Of a DNA stretch of 64,000 nucleotides, positions 1 through 40,766 are shown piece after piece. The DNA is from Deltaproteobacteria bacterium. GTDB taxonomy: Bacteria > Desulfobacterota > Desulfomonilia > UBA1062. Where the stretch lies: assembly GCA_018433775.1 (NCBI GenBank), contig JAHDQN010000040.1, positions 20,587-84,586 of the forward strand. The letters run 5' to 3'. Positions within the stretch are counted from its first letter, which is position 1. Each line of letters begins with the position of its first letter. Both the position numbers and the translations under genes were made by a program. The notes beneath the pieces are model-generated. The model saw nothing but the letters and a program-made list of their open reading frames with translations, searched no databases and was not told the origin of the DNA.

Positions 1-440
1 GAAGTTGAATCCAAATGCTCATTGATGCAATCCCATGTAGATTGGCTAAATAAAGGATCTCTTTCAGTAAGGATCAAAAAACCTTGGCCATACTTAATAT
101 GCCATTCCTCATATGAAACCTTGGATATTTTTTTGTGTAGAGTGGTTATAAATGCAATAGCAGTTCTCTCATCTGGACTGAAAATTGGGTGTTCTTTTCT
201 TATATATGGCTTTTCGCCAGGAGTGACAAAGGACCGCTCTTCCTGGGCTTCTTCATAACTTCTATAAATGTCAGCATGTTCAATCCAAATAAGTTTATCA
301 CCATCTTTTGCTATTGCATCAGGGGGATCAGGTTTTTCGATGACAATAAAATTAGTTGTATTCTTTGAATTATACCAGGCAAGGAAGCTATTAATAACCG
401 CATCCTCGTGAGCTCGCTGTATTTGTTCTCTTGGCTTCAT
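1..440 (-). CDS. Hypothetical cassette protein, truncated by the window edge (N-terminal 146 aa visible, starting MKPREQIQRAHEDAV)
   Basis: An ATG at 440-438 opens a frame that runs off position 1. The start lies 8 bp from attC1. No motif was recognised. Confidence 0.45.
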   Translation of the reverse strand, partial: MKPREQIQRAHEDAVINSFLAWYNSKNTTNFIVIEKPDPPDAIAKDGDKLIWIEHADIYRSYEEAQEERSFVTPGEKPYIRKEHPIFSPDERTAIAFITTLHKKISKVSYEEWHIKYGQGFLILTERDPLFSQSTWDCINEHLDST

Positions 441-447
441 CTTTTAT

Positions 448-507
448 TCCCAACGTGGGCATCAGCGGCGCGGCTCCGCCGCGTCCGCCTGGATGCCTTG
501 GTTGGAT
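448..507. repeat. attC site 1 (59-base element)
   Basis: The element reads TCCCAAC...cagcggcgcggctccgccgcgtccgcctg...GTTGGAT, with an internal imperfect hairpin. Confidence 0.6.
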
Positions 508-1208
508 GATCTCTTGCATGTTTGAGGGACAGGCAGAATAAATCCTAATAATGAACTCATAATCAAAACTGCTATCCAAAAGTATATTGACAGGTAGAAA
601 GACCTCATCCCCCATTTGCTTAACTCTCTAGATTTCAATAGAGCTTCTCTTTGTTCTAGTTCTTTGTTTGTGGGTATGTATAATTCAATATTACCACTCT
701 CTGTAATGTAATTTGATTGAACACCATCTTCATAGAACAAAATTCCCGCATAAAATTTGCTTATTTTTGATTTTGTATTAATTGAGTCATTTGTAGAATT
801 AATGCGTGATACGATGATATCACGAATTGTATCTGGAGTCCTGTGAGGCGCTATTTTTTTGAATGTTTGGTATCCAACGACACTCATAAATAAACAAGAT
901 ACGATTATAAAAACACCTACAGCTGAATATATAAGTCCCTTTAAGGTGTAGCCGCTCTTTCGAATATCTCGGATACCAACAATAATCATTGTTGCTACCG
1001 CTGTTGTTAGTGCAACATCGCGAAATACGCGGATAAGCCATTCAATGAGTGCAACTTCGTGCGAAGCACTAAAAGGATCAAAATCAATAAAAATTAGGTA
1101 GAAAAGGTCAACAAAAATATAAAATGCAAAACCTAAAGGGATGATCCATTCACTGATACTTGATGGCCATCGAAATATTTTACTTATTATTGACATACCT
1201 ATTTTCAT
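462..1208 (-). CDS. Cassette-encoded polytopic membrane protein of unknown function
   Basis: The 248-aa product has several hydrophobic helices. Its stop codon lies inside attC1. Its ATG overlaps the inverse core site of attC2. Confidence 0.55.
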   Translation of the reverse strand: MKIGMSIISKIFRWPSSISEWIIPLGFAFYIFVDLFYLIFIDFDPFSASHEVALIEWLIRVFRDVALTTAVATMIIVGIRDIRKSGYTLKGLIYSAVGVFIIVSCLFMSVVGYQTFKKIAPHRTPDTIRDIIVSRINSTNDSINTKSKISKFYAGILFYEDGVQSNYITESGNIELYIPTNKELEQREALLKSRELSKWGMRSFYLSIYFWIAVLIMSSLLGFILPVPQTCKRSSNQGIQADAAEPRR

Positions 1209-1263
1209 CCAACGTACCGATCACCGGCGGCTAAAAGCCGTCCGGTGCATTGGCTGGTTGGGC
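1207..1263. repeat. attC site 2
   Basis: The element reads ATCCAAC gtacc gatcaccggcggctaaaagccgtccggtgcatt ggct GGTTGGGC. It is nearly identical to attC4 in the central stem. Confidence 0.65.
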
Positions 1264-1326
1264 CTTTCGTGCATATATGCAAGGTAATTAATTATAACAT
1301 GCGGGGTTTTATTGCTGTATATAGCT

Positions 1327-2028
1327 TCATTCCTTTTGACTTCTTCTGCTATCTCTTCTGGCTTTTGCAAGTTTAAGCCTTGCTGGCTCGGTATATATTC
1401 TTTCTAGTAGCATAATAGTGAAATCAAGTAAGTCTTCAGCGTCCTCTCGTTTCAGTGTCCCTGCATGTGCACCATCGTTACCATCTTCACGCACACAAGC
1501 AGATAAATCACGTAAGCTCTCTGGAAGTATGCATTGATCAAACATCCATGGTAATCGCAATCCTAAATCACGACGAATACGTTTATTTAAGCCATTTGCA
1601 TCTTCTTCGGGAAGCATTCCCCTTGTAACAATGTCAATACACAAACGAAACATTGTACCAGCAGCATTATTACATCCAACAGCTAGACATGTTGCACCTT
1701 CACGAAAGACCTTTTCCACATCATCTGGTATGTGTTCCGGAGGCTCTGTTGTGGCAGTATCTTTTAAGCTTATGAATCCCTCAATATCAACATAAGTGTT
1801 CACTGCGCCTTTGAAACTTAATAAACCTTTTTCATGTACAAGCTTATAATTACCGTGAACATTTTCTGACAGAACAAATATTGTTGCCCGATGACAATGG
1901 CGACATTTACAGAAGGATTCATACCATTGCTGCCAGTCATATTTTACATACGTAACATGGGCTGCAATAATGTCGAAGGTAATCTTTTGTGCATGACATC
2001 GTGGACAATTTGCTACTAACTCAGCCAT
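1327..2028 (-). CDS. Cassette protein with an N-terminal CxxC...CxxC zinc-ribbon and a C-terminal helical domain resembling DUF4145 (R..GN..AH motif)
   Basis: The motifs are CPRCH...CKCRHCH at the N-terminus and ACVREDGNDGAHAG at the C-terminus. This is a domain guess from memory, not a search result. Confidence 0.5.
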   Translation of the reverse strand: MAELVANCPRCHAQKITFDIIAAHVTYVKYDWQQWYESFCKCRHCHRATIFVLSENVHGNYKLVHEKGLLSFKGAVNTYVDIEGFISLKDTATTEPPEHIPDDVEKVFREGATCLAVGCNNAAGTMFRLCIDIVTRGMLPEEDANGLNKRIRRDLGLRLPWMFDQCILPESLRDLSACVREDGNDGAHAGTLKREDAEDLLDFTIMLLERIYTEPARLKLAKARRDSRRSQKE

Positions 2029-2070
2029 AAAATATTATTCCTTTCACATAAAAAACATTTGTGACTTGAT

Positions 2071-2127
2071 GCCCAACGTAAGGGTCAGCCGCGCGCGTAG
2101 CGCGTCGGCTGCAACCTATGGTTAGGC
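2071..2127. repeat. attC site 3
   Basis: The element reads GCCCAAC gtaag ggtcagccgcgcgcgtagcgcgtcggctgcaacc tatg GTTAGGC. Confidence 0.65.
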
Positions 2128-2130
2128 GAT

Positions 2131-2985
2131 TTAACTAATTGTTAAATTTACTAATTCCTTAAAATCGCTTTCTCTTATTATGCGAAGATACTGCCCCTTT
2201 TTAATCAGCGATTCTGCTTTTCTGTGTTTGGAGCTTTTGTCATGGCCTGCAAGTTTTTTTACATCTTGATCCCCAACTACCAAAATAGTTGTATCCTTCC
2301 TAACCCCGTTAGCTACTGTGCAACCTATTTTTGAAGCCATATCAGCTGCTTCTCGCCGTGGAATATCAAGAGCACCGGTGAAAACTAAGACCTCACCAAA
2401 GAGATATCCCTCTGGATTACCTTCTCTTGAAATGCTGCTTGAAGGATCGATTGGTTGTTCGACACGTCTTAGCCAACCTTGTAAATCGATGCCCGTCTTA
2501 GCAATTGCAGCTAAAAGAATATGTGCAGCAGCTTTTGCATCTTCAAGGGCGTCATGATGCGCAAATTGGTATCCTAAGTTATTGCATACATTTGCAAGGC
2601 CGTACCCACTCCATGCAAATTGTTCCCATGTCCTGCGTGTTACGCGAGCAGAATCTAGCCAAGTACATGAAGGATTGCGAAGGTCATATTTTAAGCAAGC
2701 TTGTTGAATAGCCACTCGATCGAAATGGGTATGACAAACAACAATTCTACCATCTAAGTAATTGTATAAACGACTTGCAGCATCTGGCAGAGTGGGAGAG
2801 CCTTCTACTGTGGATTCATCGATTCCATGTATAGAAATGTTCATCCAATCGAAAAAATCCTCTGGATCGATATATGTCTTCCACTCTTCTTGCAACAATC
2901 CATTTTTGAAGACTGCAAGTCCTATTTGGCAGATTGAAGACATATCAGCATTAGCAGTTTCAAAGTCCAATGCTATAAAGTCCAT
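2131..2985 (-). CDS. DnaQ-like (DEDDh) 3'-5' exonuclease fused to a C-terminal BRCT domain
   Basis: Exonuclease I-III motifs are present: LDFETA, HGI and HHDALEDA. The C-terminal VFTGALD...ILVVGD region looks like BRCT. A GGAGG ribosome-binding site precedes the ATG. Confidence 0.7.
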   Translation of the reverse strand: MDFIALDFETANADMSSICQIGLAVFKNGLLQEEWKTYIDPEDFFDWMNISIHGIDESTVEGSPTLPDAASRLYNYLDGRIVVCHTHFDRVAIQQACLKYDLRNPSCTWLDSARVTRRTWEQFAWSGYGLANVCNNLGYQFAHHDALEDAKAAAHILLAAIAKTGIDLQGWLRRVEQPIDPSSSISREGNPEGYLFGEVLVFTGALDIPRREAADMASKIGCTVANGVRKDTTILVVGDQDVKKLAGHDKSSKHRKAESLIKKGQYLRIIRESDFKELVNLTIS

Positions 2986-2995
2986 AATGCCTCCT

Positions 2996-3052
2996 GCCTA
3001 ACGTGCAGATCACCGGCGGCTGAAAGCCGTCCGGTGCATTTGCGGGTTAGCC
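2996..3052. repeat. attC site 4
   Basis: The element reads GCCTAAC gtgca gatcaccggcggctgaaagccgtccggtgcatt tgcgg GTTAGCC. Confidence 0.65.
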
Positions 3053-3079
3053 AGCCTACCCATATAATTTTATCTGGCA

Positions 3080-3880
3080 TTACAGCGGAAGACAATAAAT
3101 TAGATCTGTATAGCATTTTTCAACCACATTTTTTGGAAAAGGTAAATGTTCGTAATCACTTCCAATTATCCCTTTATTCAAATTCATTTGGTTGTCACAA
3201 AGGATAATTATGTATTTACCAAGGGCTTTAGCATACGATGTCTCACTAAGAATCCACGAGGTGTCTCCGGGTGTAAAGATACAGATAAAAATATCTTGTG
3301 AATGTATTTTTTGGGCCACTTTATCTGGTATATTCTTTGTTTCATAACCACTTCCTTCTTTAACGTCGAATCCGAGACGTCTGAGAAAGGTGTTGAGTTT
3401 GCCTGAAACATCATTTCCGTATTCATCAAACCTATGTGCTAAAAAAATAGACTTCTTTAACCCATACTTTGATACTTTGGCTGAAACATCTTCGCCGGGA
3501 TTACTGGCTTGGAAAAATGATTTTACATGATCATGTATTGAGCTAATAATATCTAGATCATCTGATCTTACACATACTTCAAGACCTGACTTGCGAATAT
3601 TAATTATAGTTGAAAACCCAAGAGATGCATTTTTGCCCCAATAGTAATGTACATATATTGGCAAAGCATTGGGATAAGTTTCAAGCAAACGCATGAACTC
3701 CTGAAAATTTTCAGCGTGAAGTCTTCTGAATTCACCAATATGCAGACTTAAAGAATGTGAGTCTGATTTTGGTTCTTGTGGTTTATATTTATTGATCTTC
3801 AAGTATTCATCAAATTGCCTAAAGGATGATAGTATATCTAAATTACTTGGGTATACAGAATACTCTCTATCTTCTTGCAT
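3080..3880 (-). CDS. Cassette protein with a C-terminal TIR-like domain and an N-terminal domain of unknown function
   Basis: The C-terminal roughly 130 aa show the TIR pattern: IFLAHRFDE...FLRRLGFDV...IFICIFTPG..SWILSETSYAKALGK. Confidence 0.55.
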   Translation of the reverse strand: MQEDREYSVYPSNLDILSSFRQFDEYLKINKYKPQEPKSDSHSLSLHIGEFRRLHAENFQEFMRLLETYPNALPIYVHYYWGKNASLGFSTIINIRKSGLEVCVRSDDLDIISSIHDHVKSFFQASNPGEDVSAKVSKYGLKKSIFLAHRFDEYGNDVSGKLNTFLRRLGFDVKEGSGYETKNIPDKVAQKIHSQDIFICIFTPGDTSWILSETSYAKALGKYIIILCDNQMNLNKGIIGSDYEHLPFPKNVVEKCYTDLIYCLPL

Positions 3881-3922
3881 AAATACTGCCCCCTATGGCT
3901 AACAACTTCCTCTACTGCATAA

Positions 3923-3960
3923 TTGCAGCAAAAGTTGCTATATAGCAACTTTTGCTGCAA
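3923..3960. repeat. 38-bp perfect palindrome at the junction of the cassette array and the chromosome
   Basis: The sequence ttgcagcaaaagttgcta|tagcaacttttgctgcaa has 18-nt arms. It follows an imperfect inverse-core-like GGCTAAC at about 3897-3903. Confidence 0.6.
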
Positions 3961-4311
3961 CATTATGAATTACGAATATACCATGCTCCTCTTTTCGGAA
4001 GACCTTTCTCCTGGGGGGAGAGCTCGTGAGGGCCGTGCAGGAATCAGGGCAGACTCCGTCAGTAGAAGGTGAACGTGAAGATAGAAAATGGTCTCCTCTC
4101 ATTCATTTCATGCATCGACAAGGTCCGGCCGCCATTCCTGGCGTCCGGGCAATAACCTGTGAATACGATATCATTTTTTCCGCGACAAATCCAGATGAAA
4201 GTGAAAATGCTCAAGCCGCACGGGACTGCACCGTTCATGGCCCTGCCGCTCTGTACGGGCGGTCGAGCGGGCTGAACAGACCCCGCCGGGGTTTCCGGAG
4301 GCGTTACAGCC

Positions 4312-5946
<1,635 letters not shown>

Positions 5947-38429: not shown

Positions 38430-40079
38430 TCACTCGCCCGTTGTCCTGAACTTCTTCACGTCGCTTGAGAGTACCGAGGCATCCGCCCTGAGACTGTCAA
38501 GGGTGCAGGCAAGCTCTTCAACGGTGGTGGCGTTGTTCTGTGTGAATGAGTCTATCTGGCTGACGGCTATGGAGAGCTCCTTCATGTTCTGGCTCTGCTC
38601 CATGCTTGCCGTGGTAATCTCTTCCATCATCTTGAAAAAGAAATCGAAGCGCGACATGAGCTCTTCGAGGGACTCGGCCGTCTTTTTCATGAATTCGTCA
38701 CCGGTCTTGATACGGCCCACGGTTCCGTCGATGAGATTCCGGATCTCCCTGGCCGCATCGCCCGAGCGCTGGGCAAGGGCACGGACCTCACCTGCCACCA
38801 CCGCGAATCCTTTCCCGTGCTCGCCTGCCCGGGCGGCCTCCACCGATGCATTGAGGGCCAGGAGGTTTGTCTGGAAGGCCACTTCGTTGACCGTCACCAC
38901 GATATCCCCGATCTTCCGGGAATCCTGGGAAATTTCCCGGGTGGCATCCATCAGCCGGGAGAAGACCTCCCTGTTCTTGTCGATGAGCCCGGTGATGATC
39001 TGGGAGGTTTCCCTCCCCCCCTTCACCACCTGGGTGTTGTGCTGAATCGATCCGTTCATTTCTTCTATCGATGCGGATATCTCCTCAATGGACGCCGACT
39101 GTTCCTGAGTCGCCTGTGACAGGCCCTGTGAGCCCGAGCTCACCTGCTCGATGGAGCCATGGAGTTGTAAAGAGATGTGCCTCACATGCCGTATGATCTC
39201 TTCCAGGTCGTTCATGAACTCGTTGAACCAGTGGGCAAGCTGGCCCACCTCATCGATGCCCCTCACCTCCAGCCGTCTTGTGAGATCGCCCTTGCCTCCC
39301 GCCATGTCCTTGAGCATGCGGGACATGCCGCCAACGGAGGCGGTGATCCCCTTCATGAGAAGATATCCGTTGAGGAAGGTCATGATGACGGTCTGGAGGA
39401 CTATGAGAGGAAAGCTCATCTGGATAGTGGAAAGCGGCATGCCGGCGAATATGGAGAGATAGATGGTGCCGATCAGATCGCCGATTGGAGGGATTGCGAT
39501 GAGAAGAATGATGGCGAAGAGCTTCTGGTTGAGGCTGATTCTCAGATAACCCGTGCCATCTGCGAGGATTCCCTTCCTGCTGCACTCCCGGTAAAAGGGG
39601 GCGAGGCTGTTCTCGGCCACCAGGTAATAGAGCGCCATTCCTGACAATCCGGTCATACCCAGGATATTGCCCCCGAATATGAGCAAATCGAACGGCAGGT
39701 AATCTTTCATGTAAAGGGGCATCACCACGGACAGCCATGCAATCCCGGCCCACCTGATGAATATCAGGACAGCCTCTGCAAAGGGGAGGATCGAAGCACA
39801 GCGCAGGGCATACCTCGCCTCCCGCTCGTCAAGTCCTCCGTCCTCCATCACCCTGACGGCAGGACTCACCAGATGATATTTGACCGCCGCTCCGATAGCC
39901 ACCGAGATCACGGTCTGCAGGAATACCAGGGTGATGCCTTCGAGAAAATGTTCCCTGAACCCTTGAGATATGGGAAGAAAAAACATGATGACCGTCGGCA
40001 CCAGCACGAGATACGTGATTCCCTCCTGGAGCAGGAACGGGCGCAGGGAAAAGACCTTTGTGTACTCCTTCATGAGCAA
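38430..40079 (-). CDS. Methyl-accepting chemotaxis protein with a polytopic membrane-embedded N-terminal region
   Basis: HAMP and MCP signalling domains are present. The N-terminus has at least six hydrophobic helices. Confidence 0.8.
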   Translation of the reverse strand: MLMKEYTKVFSLRPFLLQEGITYLVLVPTVIMFFLPISQGFREHFLEGITLVFLQTVISVAIGAAVKYHLVSPAVRVMEDGGLDEREARYALRCASILPFAEAVLIFIRWAGIAWLSVVMPLYMKDYLPFDLLIFGGNILGMTGLSGMALYYLVAENSLAPFYRECSRKGILADGTGYLRISLNQKLFAIILLIAIPPIGDLIGTIYLSIFAGMPLSTIQMSFPLIVLQTVIMTFLNGYLLMKGITASVGGMSRMLKDMAGGKGDLTRRLEVRGIDEVGQLAHWFNEFMNDLEEIIRHVRHISLQLHGSIEQVSSGSQGLSQATQEQSASIEEISASIEEMNGSIQHNTQVVKGGRETSQIITGLIDKNREVFSRLMDATREISQDSRKIGDIVVTVNEVAFQTNLLALNASVEAARAGEHGKGFAVVAGEVRALAQRSGDAAREIRNLIDGTVGRIKTGDEFMKKTAESLEELMSRFDFFFKMMEEITTASMEQSQNMKELSIAVSQIDSFTQNNATTVEELACTLDSLRADASVLSSDVKKFRTTGE

Positions 40080-40766
40080 CCTTCCTTTCCCGATAAAAGG
40101 CTTTTATGTCATATTGTATGTTTATATTATTCATTCATTCTTCCTGGGTATATCGGCGACACAGTGCTGTAAATTTAATCGCATACCTGCCGGCATTGCA
40201 AAGGTTTACGACCGGTAACTTTTAGGGAGTAAGAAAAGAAGGAACCCTGCCCTGGAAGACAGGAAAAGAAACCGGATGTTCGGAAAAGCCGACTCCTTAA
40301 AAACCACCAAACCGAAAGATTCACAAGAATGAACACCATCCGCCCTCAACGGGAAATCAGTGCACGGGGAGGTTCGTGTATGTATGATTTCTTATAGAGA
40401 TATGAATTCTGTATCTCGCGATCTCAGGTTGAGATAGCCAGTTGATATATGCAATGTAGGCTAAGCCTTGTTATCCTCACACGATATATGAACTCTTCAA
40501 AAGACCTGTTTAATGGGAAAGGCTCTCTGCGGTGCCAGGAGAAATGATTGGGACTAATAGTGTAGTTGTAAAATCACCGACGATCCAAGTTTACCTATCC
40601 TCTGTTCGAGCTATACTGATCATTCACTTTTTTTAGGCAAGGGGCGTAATAATTATATTGATGATGGCTACCGATACTATCGGCAGATGACGCTTCGGCG
40701 TGTCACGATTCATTCCAGGCGTTAATTGCCTGGGTAAAGGCAACGTCCAGAGGAGGAGTAGCGATC

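Follow-up and report, generated by a model that had tools for sequence, protein, structure and literature searches.

Which end of a cassette array takes up new cassettes, and which integrase inserts them, when no integrase gene lies beside the array? The question is raised by the left end of a 64,000-nucleotide (nt) window of the Deltaproteobacteria bacterium assembly GCA_018433775.1 (contig JAHDQN010000040.1, positions 20,587 to 84,586), in which positions 1-3902 hold at least five integron-type cassettes on the minus strand, each made of an AT-rich open reading frame (ORF) followed by a GC-rich attC hairpin, and end close to the CTP synthase gene pyrG. The answer that we consider probable is a genuine chromosomal cassette array with an orphan attI site behind pyrG, served in trans by an integrase encoded at another locus.

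Regarding the layout, the sequence-only reading of this DNA had described four structured elements of 57-60 bp in the gaps among five same-strand ORFs. The sequence and the ORF listing do show five minus-strand ORFs whose gaps hold four hairpin elements, each 57-60 nt long; the coordinates of these elements were confirmed, and their folds were better than those of shuffled sequences. The features are listed here with the scores given by R1, a covariance model built from this attC family itself.

3-440, minus strand: ORF of cassette 5 (<1-453), partial at the window edge, with 146 amino acids (aa) seen and its ATG at 440.
448-507, minus strand: attC1, 60 nt, top strand ATCCAAC...GTTGGGA, with three bulges (T, C, G) on the 3' arm of the plus strand; R1 score of 70.4 bits on the minus strand versus 23 bits on the plus strand; DNA fold of -22.1 kcal/mol, z -4.9.
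462-1208, minus strand: ORF of cassette 4 (454-1212), 248 aa, hydrophobic, with its stop codon within attC1.
1207-1263, minus strand: attC2, 57 nt, top strand GCCCAAC...GTTGGAT, with a bulged T, 6 bp and a bulged C on the 3' arm of the plus strand; R1 score of 62.5 bits; fold z -4.1; strict consensus match.
1327-2028, minus strand: ORF of cassette 3 (1213-2076), 233 aa, DUF4145, PD-T7-4-like.
2071-2127, minus strand: attC3, 57 nt, top strand GCCTAAC...GTTGGGC; R1 score of 64.6 bits; strict consensus match.
2131-2985, minus strand: ORF of cassette 2 (2077-3001), 284 aa, DEDDh 3'-5' exonuclease with a C-terminal BRCT domain.
2996-3052, minus strand: attC4, 57 nt, top strand GGCTAAC...GTTAGGC; R1 score of 62.3 bits; fold z -4.9.
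3080-3880, minus strand: ORF of cassette 1 (3002-3901), 266 aa, the attI-proximal cassette.
3896-3902, minus strand: attI/cassette junction, GTTAGCC, crossing over between 3902 (G) and 3901 (T); attC4 has the reverse complement as its R'' core.
3903-3979, minus strand: orphan attI, with a 38-nt perfect palindrome at 3923-3960, then GCAGTAGAGGAAGTTG to the crossover.
3980-4311, minus strand: non-coding spacer between pyrG and attI, kept across the clade.
4312-5946, minus strand: pyrG (CTP synthase), in the same direction as the cassettes and in the place usually occupied by intI.

The four elements are real attC sites. Folded as single-stranded DNA, all four hairpins were better than dinucleotide shuffles (z -3.4 to -4.9), and their length of 57-60 nt falls in the attC range of 57-141 nt. 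When the four window sites were aligned with six from close relatives, the AAC and GTT triplets were invariant, and a 21-pair hairpin emerged with 92.9% of its cells paired and compensatory changes in 12 of its 21 pairs; the covariation score was reached by none of 500 shuffles, and sliding the partners by 1-3 columns left a pairing of only 29-45%. As for the motif RYYYAAC...GTTRRRY, which had been claimed for each element, it is strict in two of the four (attC2 and attC3), and it is one base off in attC1 (TCCCAAC) and attC4 (GTTAGCC), so that six of the eight window cores have the full 7-nt consensus. The chain of complementary cores proposed between neighbours, GTTGGAT/ATCCAAC, GTTGGGC/GCCCAAC and GTTAGGC/GCCTAAC, is exact, and it has one extra step, in which GTTAGCC at the end of attC4 pairs with GGCTAAC at 3896-3902. 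On sequence grounds the elements appear to have every attC feature examined, and strong comparative evidence supports recombination at G|TT.

The composition and the extent of the block had also been read correctly: its GC content is 38.9%, versus 61.1% for the rest of the window, and its abrupt end, placed about 400 bp before pyrG, is at 3902, 410 nt from the pyrG stop codon (4312). Within the block, the cassette bodies have 34-41% GC and the attC sites 61-70%; the same combination of low-GC bodies and GC-rich attC sites was found in every array of the family (41-48% GC overall; for example at 3111-11603 in L119 and from 8265 to the end in L129, the L-numbers being those of the compared loci), and the cassettes look compositionally foreign to their hosts. 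One attC lies 3' of each of the four downstream-bounded minus-strand ORFs, and all four fully readable cassette ORFs are intact.

GC-rich hairpins in intergenic gaps might also be genome-wide palindromes of the repetitive extragenic (REP-like) kind, or transcription terminators. A REP family had in fact been named in advance as the finding that would overturn the attC calls, and it was looked for with R1 in the window and in 1.2 Mb around pyrG in 80 genomes, where it was not found. In the window, R1 detected the four attC sites only (62-70 bits on the minus strand, 21-24 bits on the plus strand), all else scoring at most 10.4 bits; in the 1.2 Mb its only detections were the sites on which it had been trained, in the three closest relatives, with none outside the clade. 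The elements have no T-tract and received no terminator call, their AAC/GTT cores chain between neighbours, and the same family lies beside integrases of TIGR02249; this alternative was rejected, and there is next to no chance that it is right. In further loci, R1 found ~60 more sites, all within cassette arrays and in one orientation. Dozens of sites stand downstream of intI and attI in L086, L102, L108, L129 and L130, always pointing away from intI; with the cut-off of TIGR02249 at 265 bits, the IntI of L086 scored 412 bits and that of L138 453 bits. With sites of these other arrays the window attC sites share 85-96% identity (96% for attC4), while the window cassette bodies are unique.

Regarding the recombining strand, the plus-strand folds have their bulges on the 3' arm, opposite the AAC arm, with a T, 6 bp and a C in attC2, attC3 and attC4; in attC1 the bulges are T, C and G, with 5 bp separating the first bulge from the last one, and in three sites the first bulged base is C, not the usual G. 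Extrahelical bases opposite AAC, a conserved last T and a 6-bp spacing are the mark of the bottom strand, the one that is recombined (Nivina et al., PMC5027507). Since the bulges of the window fit this signature, the plus strand is the bottom one, and the ORF-bearing minus strand is the top one; the orientation of the sites away from intI in the linked arrays is an independent validation of this call. With the minus strand on top, the array starts at 3902, beside pyrG, and runs leftwards.

Comparison of related loci points to 3903-3979 as the attI that heads the array. The closest genomes are those of LM3-B1m (L002), SV3-B1.1 (L003) and Deltaproteobacteria bacterium Phox-21 (L010), the last of which we take to be Candidatus Phosphitivorax anaerolimi. 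Their PyrG is ~94% identical to that of the window (94% identity was also found between the window pyrG and the pyrG of Phox-21 and related metagenome-assembled genomes, MAGs, and CTP_synth_N and GATase were called in the syntenic loci), and over pyrG and the spacer their alignment with the window has an identity of 84-90%. This alignment ends exactly after ...GCAGTAGAGGAAGTTGTT, and the shared pyrG-to-junction homology runs to ...GAGGAAGTTG|TT; homology with L096, L097 and L099 likewise stops exactly at the G|TT junction, as it does for seven related genomes altogether. Past GTT the genomes diverge (AGCC, ATGT, CGGC, AGGC), and different cassettes and attC sites follow.

A scan of metagenomes for the palindrome returned 19 further loci. 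Three have the junction motif of the window with yet other first cassettes, and ten belong to a sister type, B, characterized by GAGAAACTTG|TT and by a PyrG 90% identical to that of the window. The remaining six lie away from pyrG: in L085, L086, L088 and L090 an integron integrase is found ~200 nt off, in divergent orientation; L100 holds only the first ~37 residues of an integrase at its contig end, and L091 has no integrase within its 4.3-kb contig. Between the window and L085/L086 the identity is 85-92% and covers no more than the ~80 nt that precede G|TT, the same ~80 nt that adjoin intI in L085, L086 and L129-L138, as expected for attI proper. Eight aligned attI variants share a palindrome of 34-38 nt and a GCAG...AAGTTG motif, which occurs twice in direct and once in inverted orientation, and the palindrome of L129 differs from that of the window by a compensated change (AATAG/CTATT versus AAAAG/CTTTT). 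This attI is invariant among close relatives and better conserved than the spacer around it. A degenerate attC was tried as the identity of the palindrome and rejected: R1 gives no match there, no GTT core follows it, and in relatives it belongs to the attI on the intI side. Finally, a search of the window against Rfam gave no match at gathering thresholds and, at the E-value threshold, only chance-level hits on the spacer and the palindrome. From these comparisons, the order pyrG, spacer, attI and cassettes appears to be ancestral to the Desulfomonilia clade, in which it occurs in type A (the Phox-21 lineage, including the window) and in the sister type B.

It follows that the earlier statement that the window has no attI does not hold, given the match of 3903-3979 to the intI-linked attI of L085/L086 and the homology that stops at G|TT. 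The suggestion that the block is the distal part of an ordinary integron, with intI and attI beyond the left edge, has a basis in that the window cuts the array on the left, leaving that side unseen, and in that the chain of complementary cores is by itself symmetric and fits both directions. It is contradicted by the bulges, which mark the plus strand as the bottom one, by the ORFs on the minus strand, by the orientation of the R1 sites in the intI-linked arrays, and by the G|TT junction with a conserved attI at 3902; moreover, at the distal end of complete sister arrays there are core genes and no intI. We regard it as very improbable: the pyrG end, at 3902, is the insertion end of the array and not its distal end.

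With an attI at this end, the first cassettes are the place where activity should be visible, and they differ even between nearly identical strains. L010, L096, L097 and L099 have 100% identical 330-nt spacers and four different first cassettes, and L010 and L096 are 99.57% identical over 5.3 kb upstream; the pairs L092 and L093 (100% identity) and L094 and L101 are identical over 2.5 kb upstream, and in each pair the first cassettes differ. The array of L099 starts with the second cassette of L010 (100% over 720 nt), which means that a 2449-nt first cassette was gained or lost precisely at G|TT. In type B, L119 and L128 are 99.4% identical up to G|TT, carry ~4.3 kb of unrelated proximal cassettes, and regain 99.9% identity from within an attC on. 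At least 11 different first cassettes occur on the two types of orphan attI taken together. One type B cassette and the first cassette of an intI-linked integron are 93% identical, therefore the arrays share one cassette pool. Variation at the attI end whose breakpoints fall at attI and attC is what integrase-mediated capture and excision would leave behind, and the loci compared bear this signature.

The same variation might be produced by homologous recombination after DNA uptake among relatives that share the pyrG-attI platform, with no need of a resident integrase. Natural transformation drives cassette shuffling in chromosomal integrons (PMC12614218), and both the conserved pyrG flank and the attC sites, 85-96% identical across arrays, could serve as homology. 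Yet the variable blocks start exactly at the G|TT of attI, and attI and the R' core of attC share only ~7 nt, so the junctions were made by site-specific recombination somewhere in the lineage; intact cognate intI genes are, in addition, present in the MAGs. Uptake as the source of the strain variation is accordingly quite unlikely.

As for the integrase, its absence from the window, as claimed in the sequence-only reading, was upheld with two probes: tblastn of IntI1 gave nothing below E = 3, and the verified IntI of L086 nothing at E<1e-5; no tyrosine recombinase was found in 3903-64000. An intI adjacent to attI, the feature of a complete integron, is thus missing here, and pyrG is in its place. 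The spacer (3980-4311) contains no intI remnant and no conserved ORF, indels among relatives breaking the frames; a small ORF at 3938-4102 was rejected for the same reason. Whole type B arrays were obtained by looking up a type B cassette protein; none of the loci L119-L128 contains an integrase, and the complete arrays L119 and L120 lack intI on both sides. In L119, carB and pyrG are followed by attI (crossover at 3110) and by 12 attC sites up to 11603, and then by an AMP-binding enzyme, RNase D, purC and transketolase; the array of L120 ends before rarA. The array is therefore, in operational terms, a CALIN (cluster of attC sites lacking an integron-integrase), bounded by core genes in its complete sisters, but with an attI. 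Of the two options first offered for the block, a CALIN or the distal part of an array, the former stands, with four attC sites and no intI over 60 kb rightwards, and the latter falls.

The canonical integron of the family is found elsewhere, in the order oppC, intI, attI and cassettes (L085, L102, L109-L118, L129-L138). L122, which is identical to the array and distal flank of L119 (100% over 14,772 nt), and L138, which has oppC and an intact intI of 324 aa, are both in assembly ERZ773360, with coverages of 14.8 and 16.1; three further metagenomes hold both a type B array and oppC-intI loci. In the NCBI accessions for type B, the array proteins are HQM21493-21495, IntI is HQM21696 and OppC is HQM21697. 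In type A, HPD22184 is a PyrG with the same sequence as that of L096, a locus with the orphan attI, and IntI HPD22486 and OppC HPD22485 are in the same accession run; the pattern repeats for MFY9168068 with MFY9168009 and for MGI6398100 with MGI6397615. At the level of binning, the co-residence of an orphan array with oppC-intI repeats in five MAGs. The orphan attI of type B and the intI-linked attI of L138 have the same 17 nt at the crossover. Attachment sites of the attI kind are recognized by their cognate integrase alone (PMC2095811); for this reason, and given the identical 17 nt, the oppC-linked IntI is the obvious candidate.

Other recombinases were set aside. At a distance of ~8 kb from pyrG, L026 and L031 have tyrosine recombinases whose identity to IntI is only 25-28%, and the IntI matches P0003, P0022, P0033, P0013 and P0002 are in MAGs other than Phox-21, LM3-B1m and SV3-B1.1; for P0013 (JAHDOV01) the attI differs. 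L108 (JAHDOV010000029, 4300-5440), from the same accession series as LM3-B1m and SV3-B1.1, is an integron with the same attC family (73.5 bits), an IntI only 68% identical, a different attI region without the palindrome, and other flanking genes.

In the mechanism proposed, the oppC-adjacent integrase of the same genome, which has its own near-identical attI and array, would act in trans: it would join the folded bottom strand (the plus strand of the window) of circular cassettes to the orphan attI at G|TT, cassettes would be excised by attI x attC or attC x attC recombination, and one integrase would serve two arrays. Several points weigh against this reading. The attC calls were made with R1, a model of the family itself, in place of the IntegronFinder attC model; co-residence of the array and the integrase was established through MAG binning and accession runs, and not in a closed genome; the presence of intI in the genome of the window is extrapolated from relatives whose PyrG is 94% identical, the left flank lying beyond the window; recognition of the pyrG-linked attI by this IntI is likewise presumed from the likeness of the sites; and a scan of 3903-4311 gave no promoter of the sigma-70 type for the cassettes.

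The main alternative is a frozen relic, i.e., a CALIN left by genome-wide loss of the integrase, in which the cassettes are merely inherited and decay. It would agree with the lack of intI within 60 kb, with the invasion of related arrays by insertion sequences (IS), with the inactive arrays at conserved loci documented in Xanthomonas (10.1101/2025.06.18.660453), and with the reliance on relatives for the intI status of the window's own genome. Against it stand the first cassettes, which differ between strains of identical flanks and are joined precisely at G|TT, the stronger conservation of attI than of the surrounding spacer, the intact intI genes found in MAGs of both lineages, and the four fully readable cassette ORFs, all of them intact. 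A frozen relic is thus unlikely, and service in trans by the oppC-linked integrase remains the reading we favor. An extended version of it is put forward tentatively, as one that we lean slightly against: a stable system of one integrase and two platforms, in which attI would have been transplanted behind the constitutive housekeeping gene pyrG before the species-level split and kept active in trans via the oppC-linked IntI, expression by read-through would be uncoupled from intI and its promoter Pc, and both a conserved block of the spacer and the palindrome would be functional.

Regarding expression, the minus-strand scan of 3903-4311 for sigma-70-type promoters also found no terminator after pyrG. 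The cassettes probably owe their transcription to pyrG read-through or to a promoter within the spacer; since neither a terminator nor a promoter was found between pyrG and attI, and the cassettes are co-directional with pyrG, read-through is the simplest guess. Conservation between types A and B is far higher in a block of ~200 nt in the spacer (window ~4010-4230; L119 2790-3010) than on either side of it, and the block might act as a promoter or leader, or encode a small RNA. The block contains AGGAGACC and no conserved ORF. A consensus fold of the spacer exists, with too little covariation to call an RNA. Directly after the pyrG stop, at 4283-4311, the window has an insertion of ~31 nt (CTGTAACGCCTCCGGAAACCCCGGCGGGG...) relative to L002, L003 and L010; type B has a different insertion, of 170 nt, in the same place.

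Comparison with known systems helps to define what is new. Class 1 derivatives with a truncated or deleted intI1 keep attI1 and their cassettes, and IntI1 supplied in trans can recombine them in two-plasmid assays; integrases act in trans in every laboratory assay, so an array served in trans is mechanistically unsurprising. These derivatives resemble the present array in having attI and cassettes without a functional integrase in cis, but they are recent deletions on mobile elements, whereas the pyrG-linked array is old, chromosomally fixed and conserved across species. The Vibrio cholerae superintegron is a sedentary chromosomal integron in which intI is adjacent to and divergent from attI. 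The sedentary type is chromosomal and lineage-specific, its attC sites are homogeneous, and toxin-antitoxin and anti-phage genes are among its many cassettes (10.1101/2024.07.02.601719); similarly, the arrays studied here keep the same pyrG-linked position in types A and B, their attC sites are 85-96% alike, and L119 has 12 of them. The difference is that pyrG, co-directional with the cassettes, adjoins attI, and that the integrase is at the oppC locus.

The ilvD-linked integrons of Xanthomonas (10.1101/2025.06.18.660453, and Gillings et al. 2005 as cited there) also have an array next to a housekeeping gene, in a place kept from species to species, and in these integrons and in CALINs the integrase is often non-functional or non-adjacent (10.1101/2025.06.18.660453). 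In Xanthomonas, however, intI or a remnant of it stays at ilvD and the integrase-less arrays appear frozen, whereas here there is no remnant and the first cassette turns over. As for CALINs, they were defined as clusters of attC sites without integron-integrase by Cury et al. 2016 (PMC4889954); about half of those known share the replicon with an intI, by which their cassettes are thought to be mobilizable, and their origin was proposed to lie in intI loss or rearrangement, with excision by an integrase elsewhere being possible. In that work attI sites could not be sought, attI being unknown for most integrons (PMC4889954). The pyrG-linked array resembles a CALIN in its four attC sites without intI over 60 kb rightwards and in its cargo, mostly of unknown genes and not of resistance genes; it departs from the definition, which ignores attI, in being headed by an attI orthologous to the intI-linked one, and also in that variation clusters at the attI end and the locus is kept from one species to another. 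For these reasons it is better described as an insertion platform than as a mere cassette store. Literature searches returned no description of an orphan-attI array served in trans; what is added by the comparisons made here is an orphan attI, apparently orthologous to the intI-linked one, that seems to have been fixed behind pyrG before the lineages split and whose first cassettes would still be turning over.

CALINs are common, and their origin and whether they are alive have so far been inferred, in part because attI is unknown for most integrons. Here attI is recognizable, as the same 80 nt stand beside intI in related genomes, and the locus offers a natural case for showing that an integrase-less array still gains and loses cassettes at its own attI. 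If the reading is correct, counts of integrons based on intI underestimate the number of active platforms, some CALINs would have to be re-read as satellite arrays, and an attI behind a housekeeping gene would be a route to constitutive cassette expression. The system is testable, with a defined IntI, two attI variants and short attC sites of 57 nt. For the phosphite-oxidizing Desulfomonilia of digesters, the locus marks a hot spot of strain variation with genes of the defense type.

Regarding the cargo, the sequence-only reading had called it defense-flavored, and this is supported for two of the five cassettes. Cassette 2 matched PF00929 (E 1.9e-15) and PF00533 (E 7.4e-5), NF004844 with E 1.2e-50, below the cut-off of that family, and the PADLOC candidate system PDC-S48 (E 1.9e-28); cassette 3 matched PF13643 (E 5e-6), PD-T7-4 of PADLOC (E 1.4e-8) and phrog_1305 (E 1.2e-33). 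For cassette 1 a defense role is a guess, from weak hints to TIR_2 (E 0.025, below cut-off) and ThsB (E 0.009). Cassettes 4 and 5 have no known function and do not bear the description out: the former had no family match in Pfam, NCBIfam, PADLOC and PHROG searches, and the only match of the latter was phrog_23471 (function unknown, E 1.1e-11), with no Pfam, NCBIfam or PADLOC hit. Related arrays contain a SIR2-HerA pair, a PD-T4-3-like GIY-YIG protein, HEPN proteins, RelE-type toxin-antitoxin pairs and Fic. Taken with that of the window, this cargo fits the published view of integrons as stores of defense genes (10.1101/2024.07.02.601719).

In L086, the two genes for SIR2 and HerA (1225-4127; PADLOC E 1.2e-72 and E 2.1e-129, respectively) lie between two attC sites, and the array also has a PD-T4-3-like GIY-YIG cassette and a PDC-S31-like one. 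The first cassette of SV3-B1.1 (L003, 12024-14271) is ~2.2 kb long, with three consecutive ORFs before its attC; judged by eye, they look like a histidine kinase and two receiver-domain proteins.

IS elements in the related arrays comprise DDE transposases of several families and an element of the IS3 type, and lie at 13090-14700 in L002, 12490-14110 in L010, 1360-2474 and 7381-end in L083, and 474-1565 in L087; in the last, it is the spacer that is hit, 157 nt upstream of the crossover in attI. Where type B arrays share the same proximal cassettes, two distal contexts occur, namely abhydrolase, AMP-binding enzyme and RNase D in L119/L122/L124 versus IS, Fic and rarA in L120/L121/L123/L127, a pattern suggestive of an IS-associated rearrangement of the array's far end.

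Finally, the cassette proteins of the window were matched only on Logan contigs of ~950 nt from SRR13787005. Cassettes 2 and 1 are there as separate contigs of 953 and 941 nt (L001 and L082), with ends in the flanking attC sites, and the short-read assembly of SRR13787005 breaks at every attC; the organism of the window is therefore present in that sample. Outside the array, the sole other GC dip of the window is at 39000-40500, with 51.6% versus ~61%.

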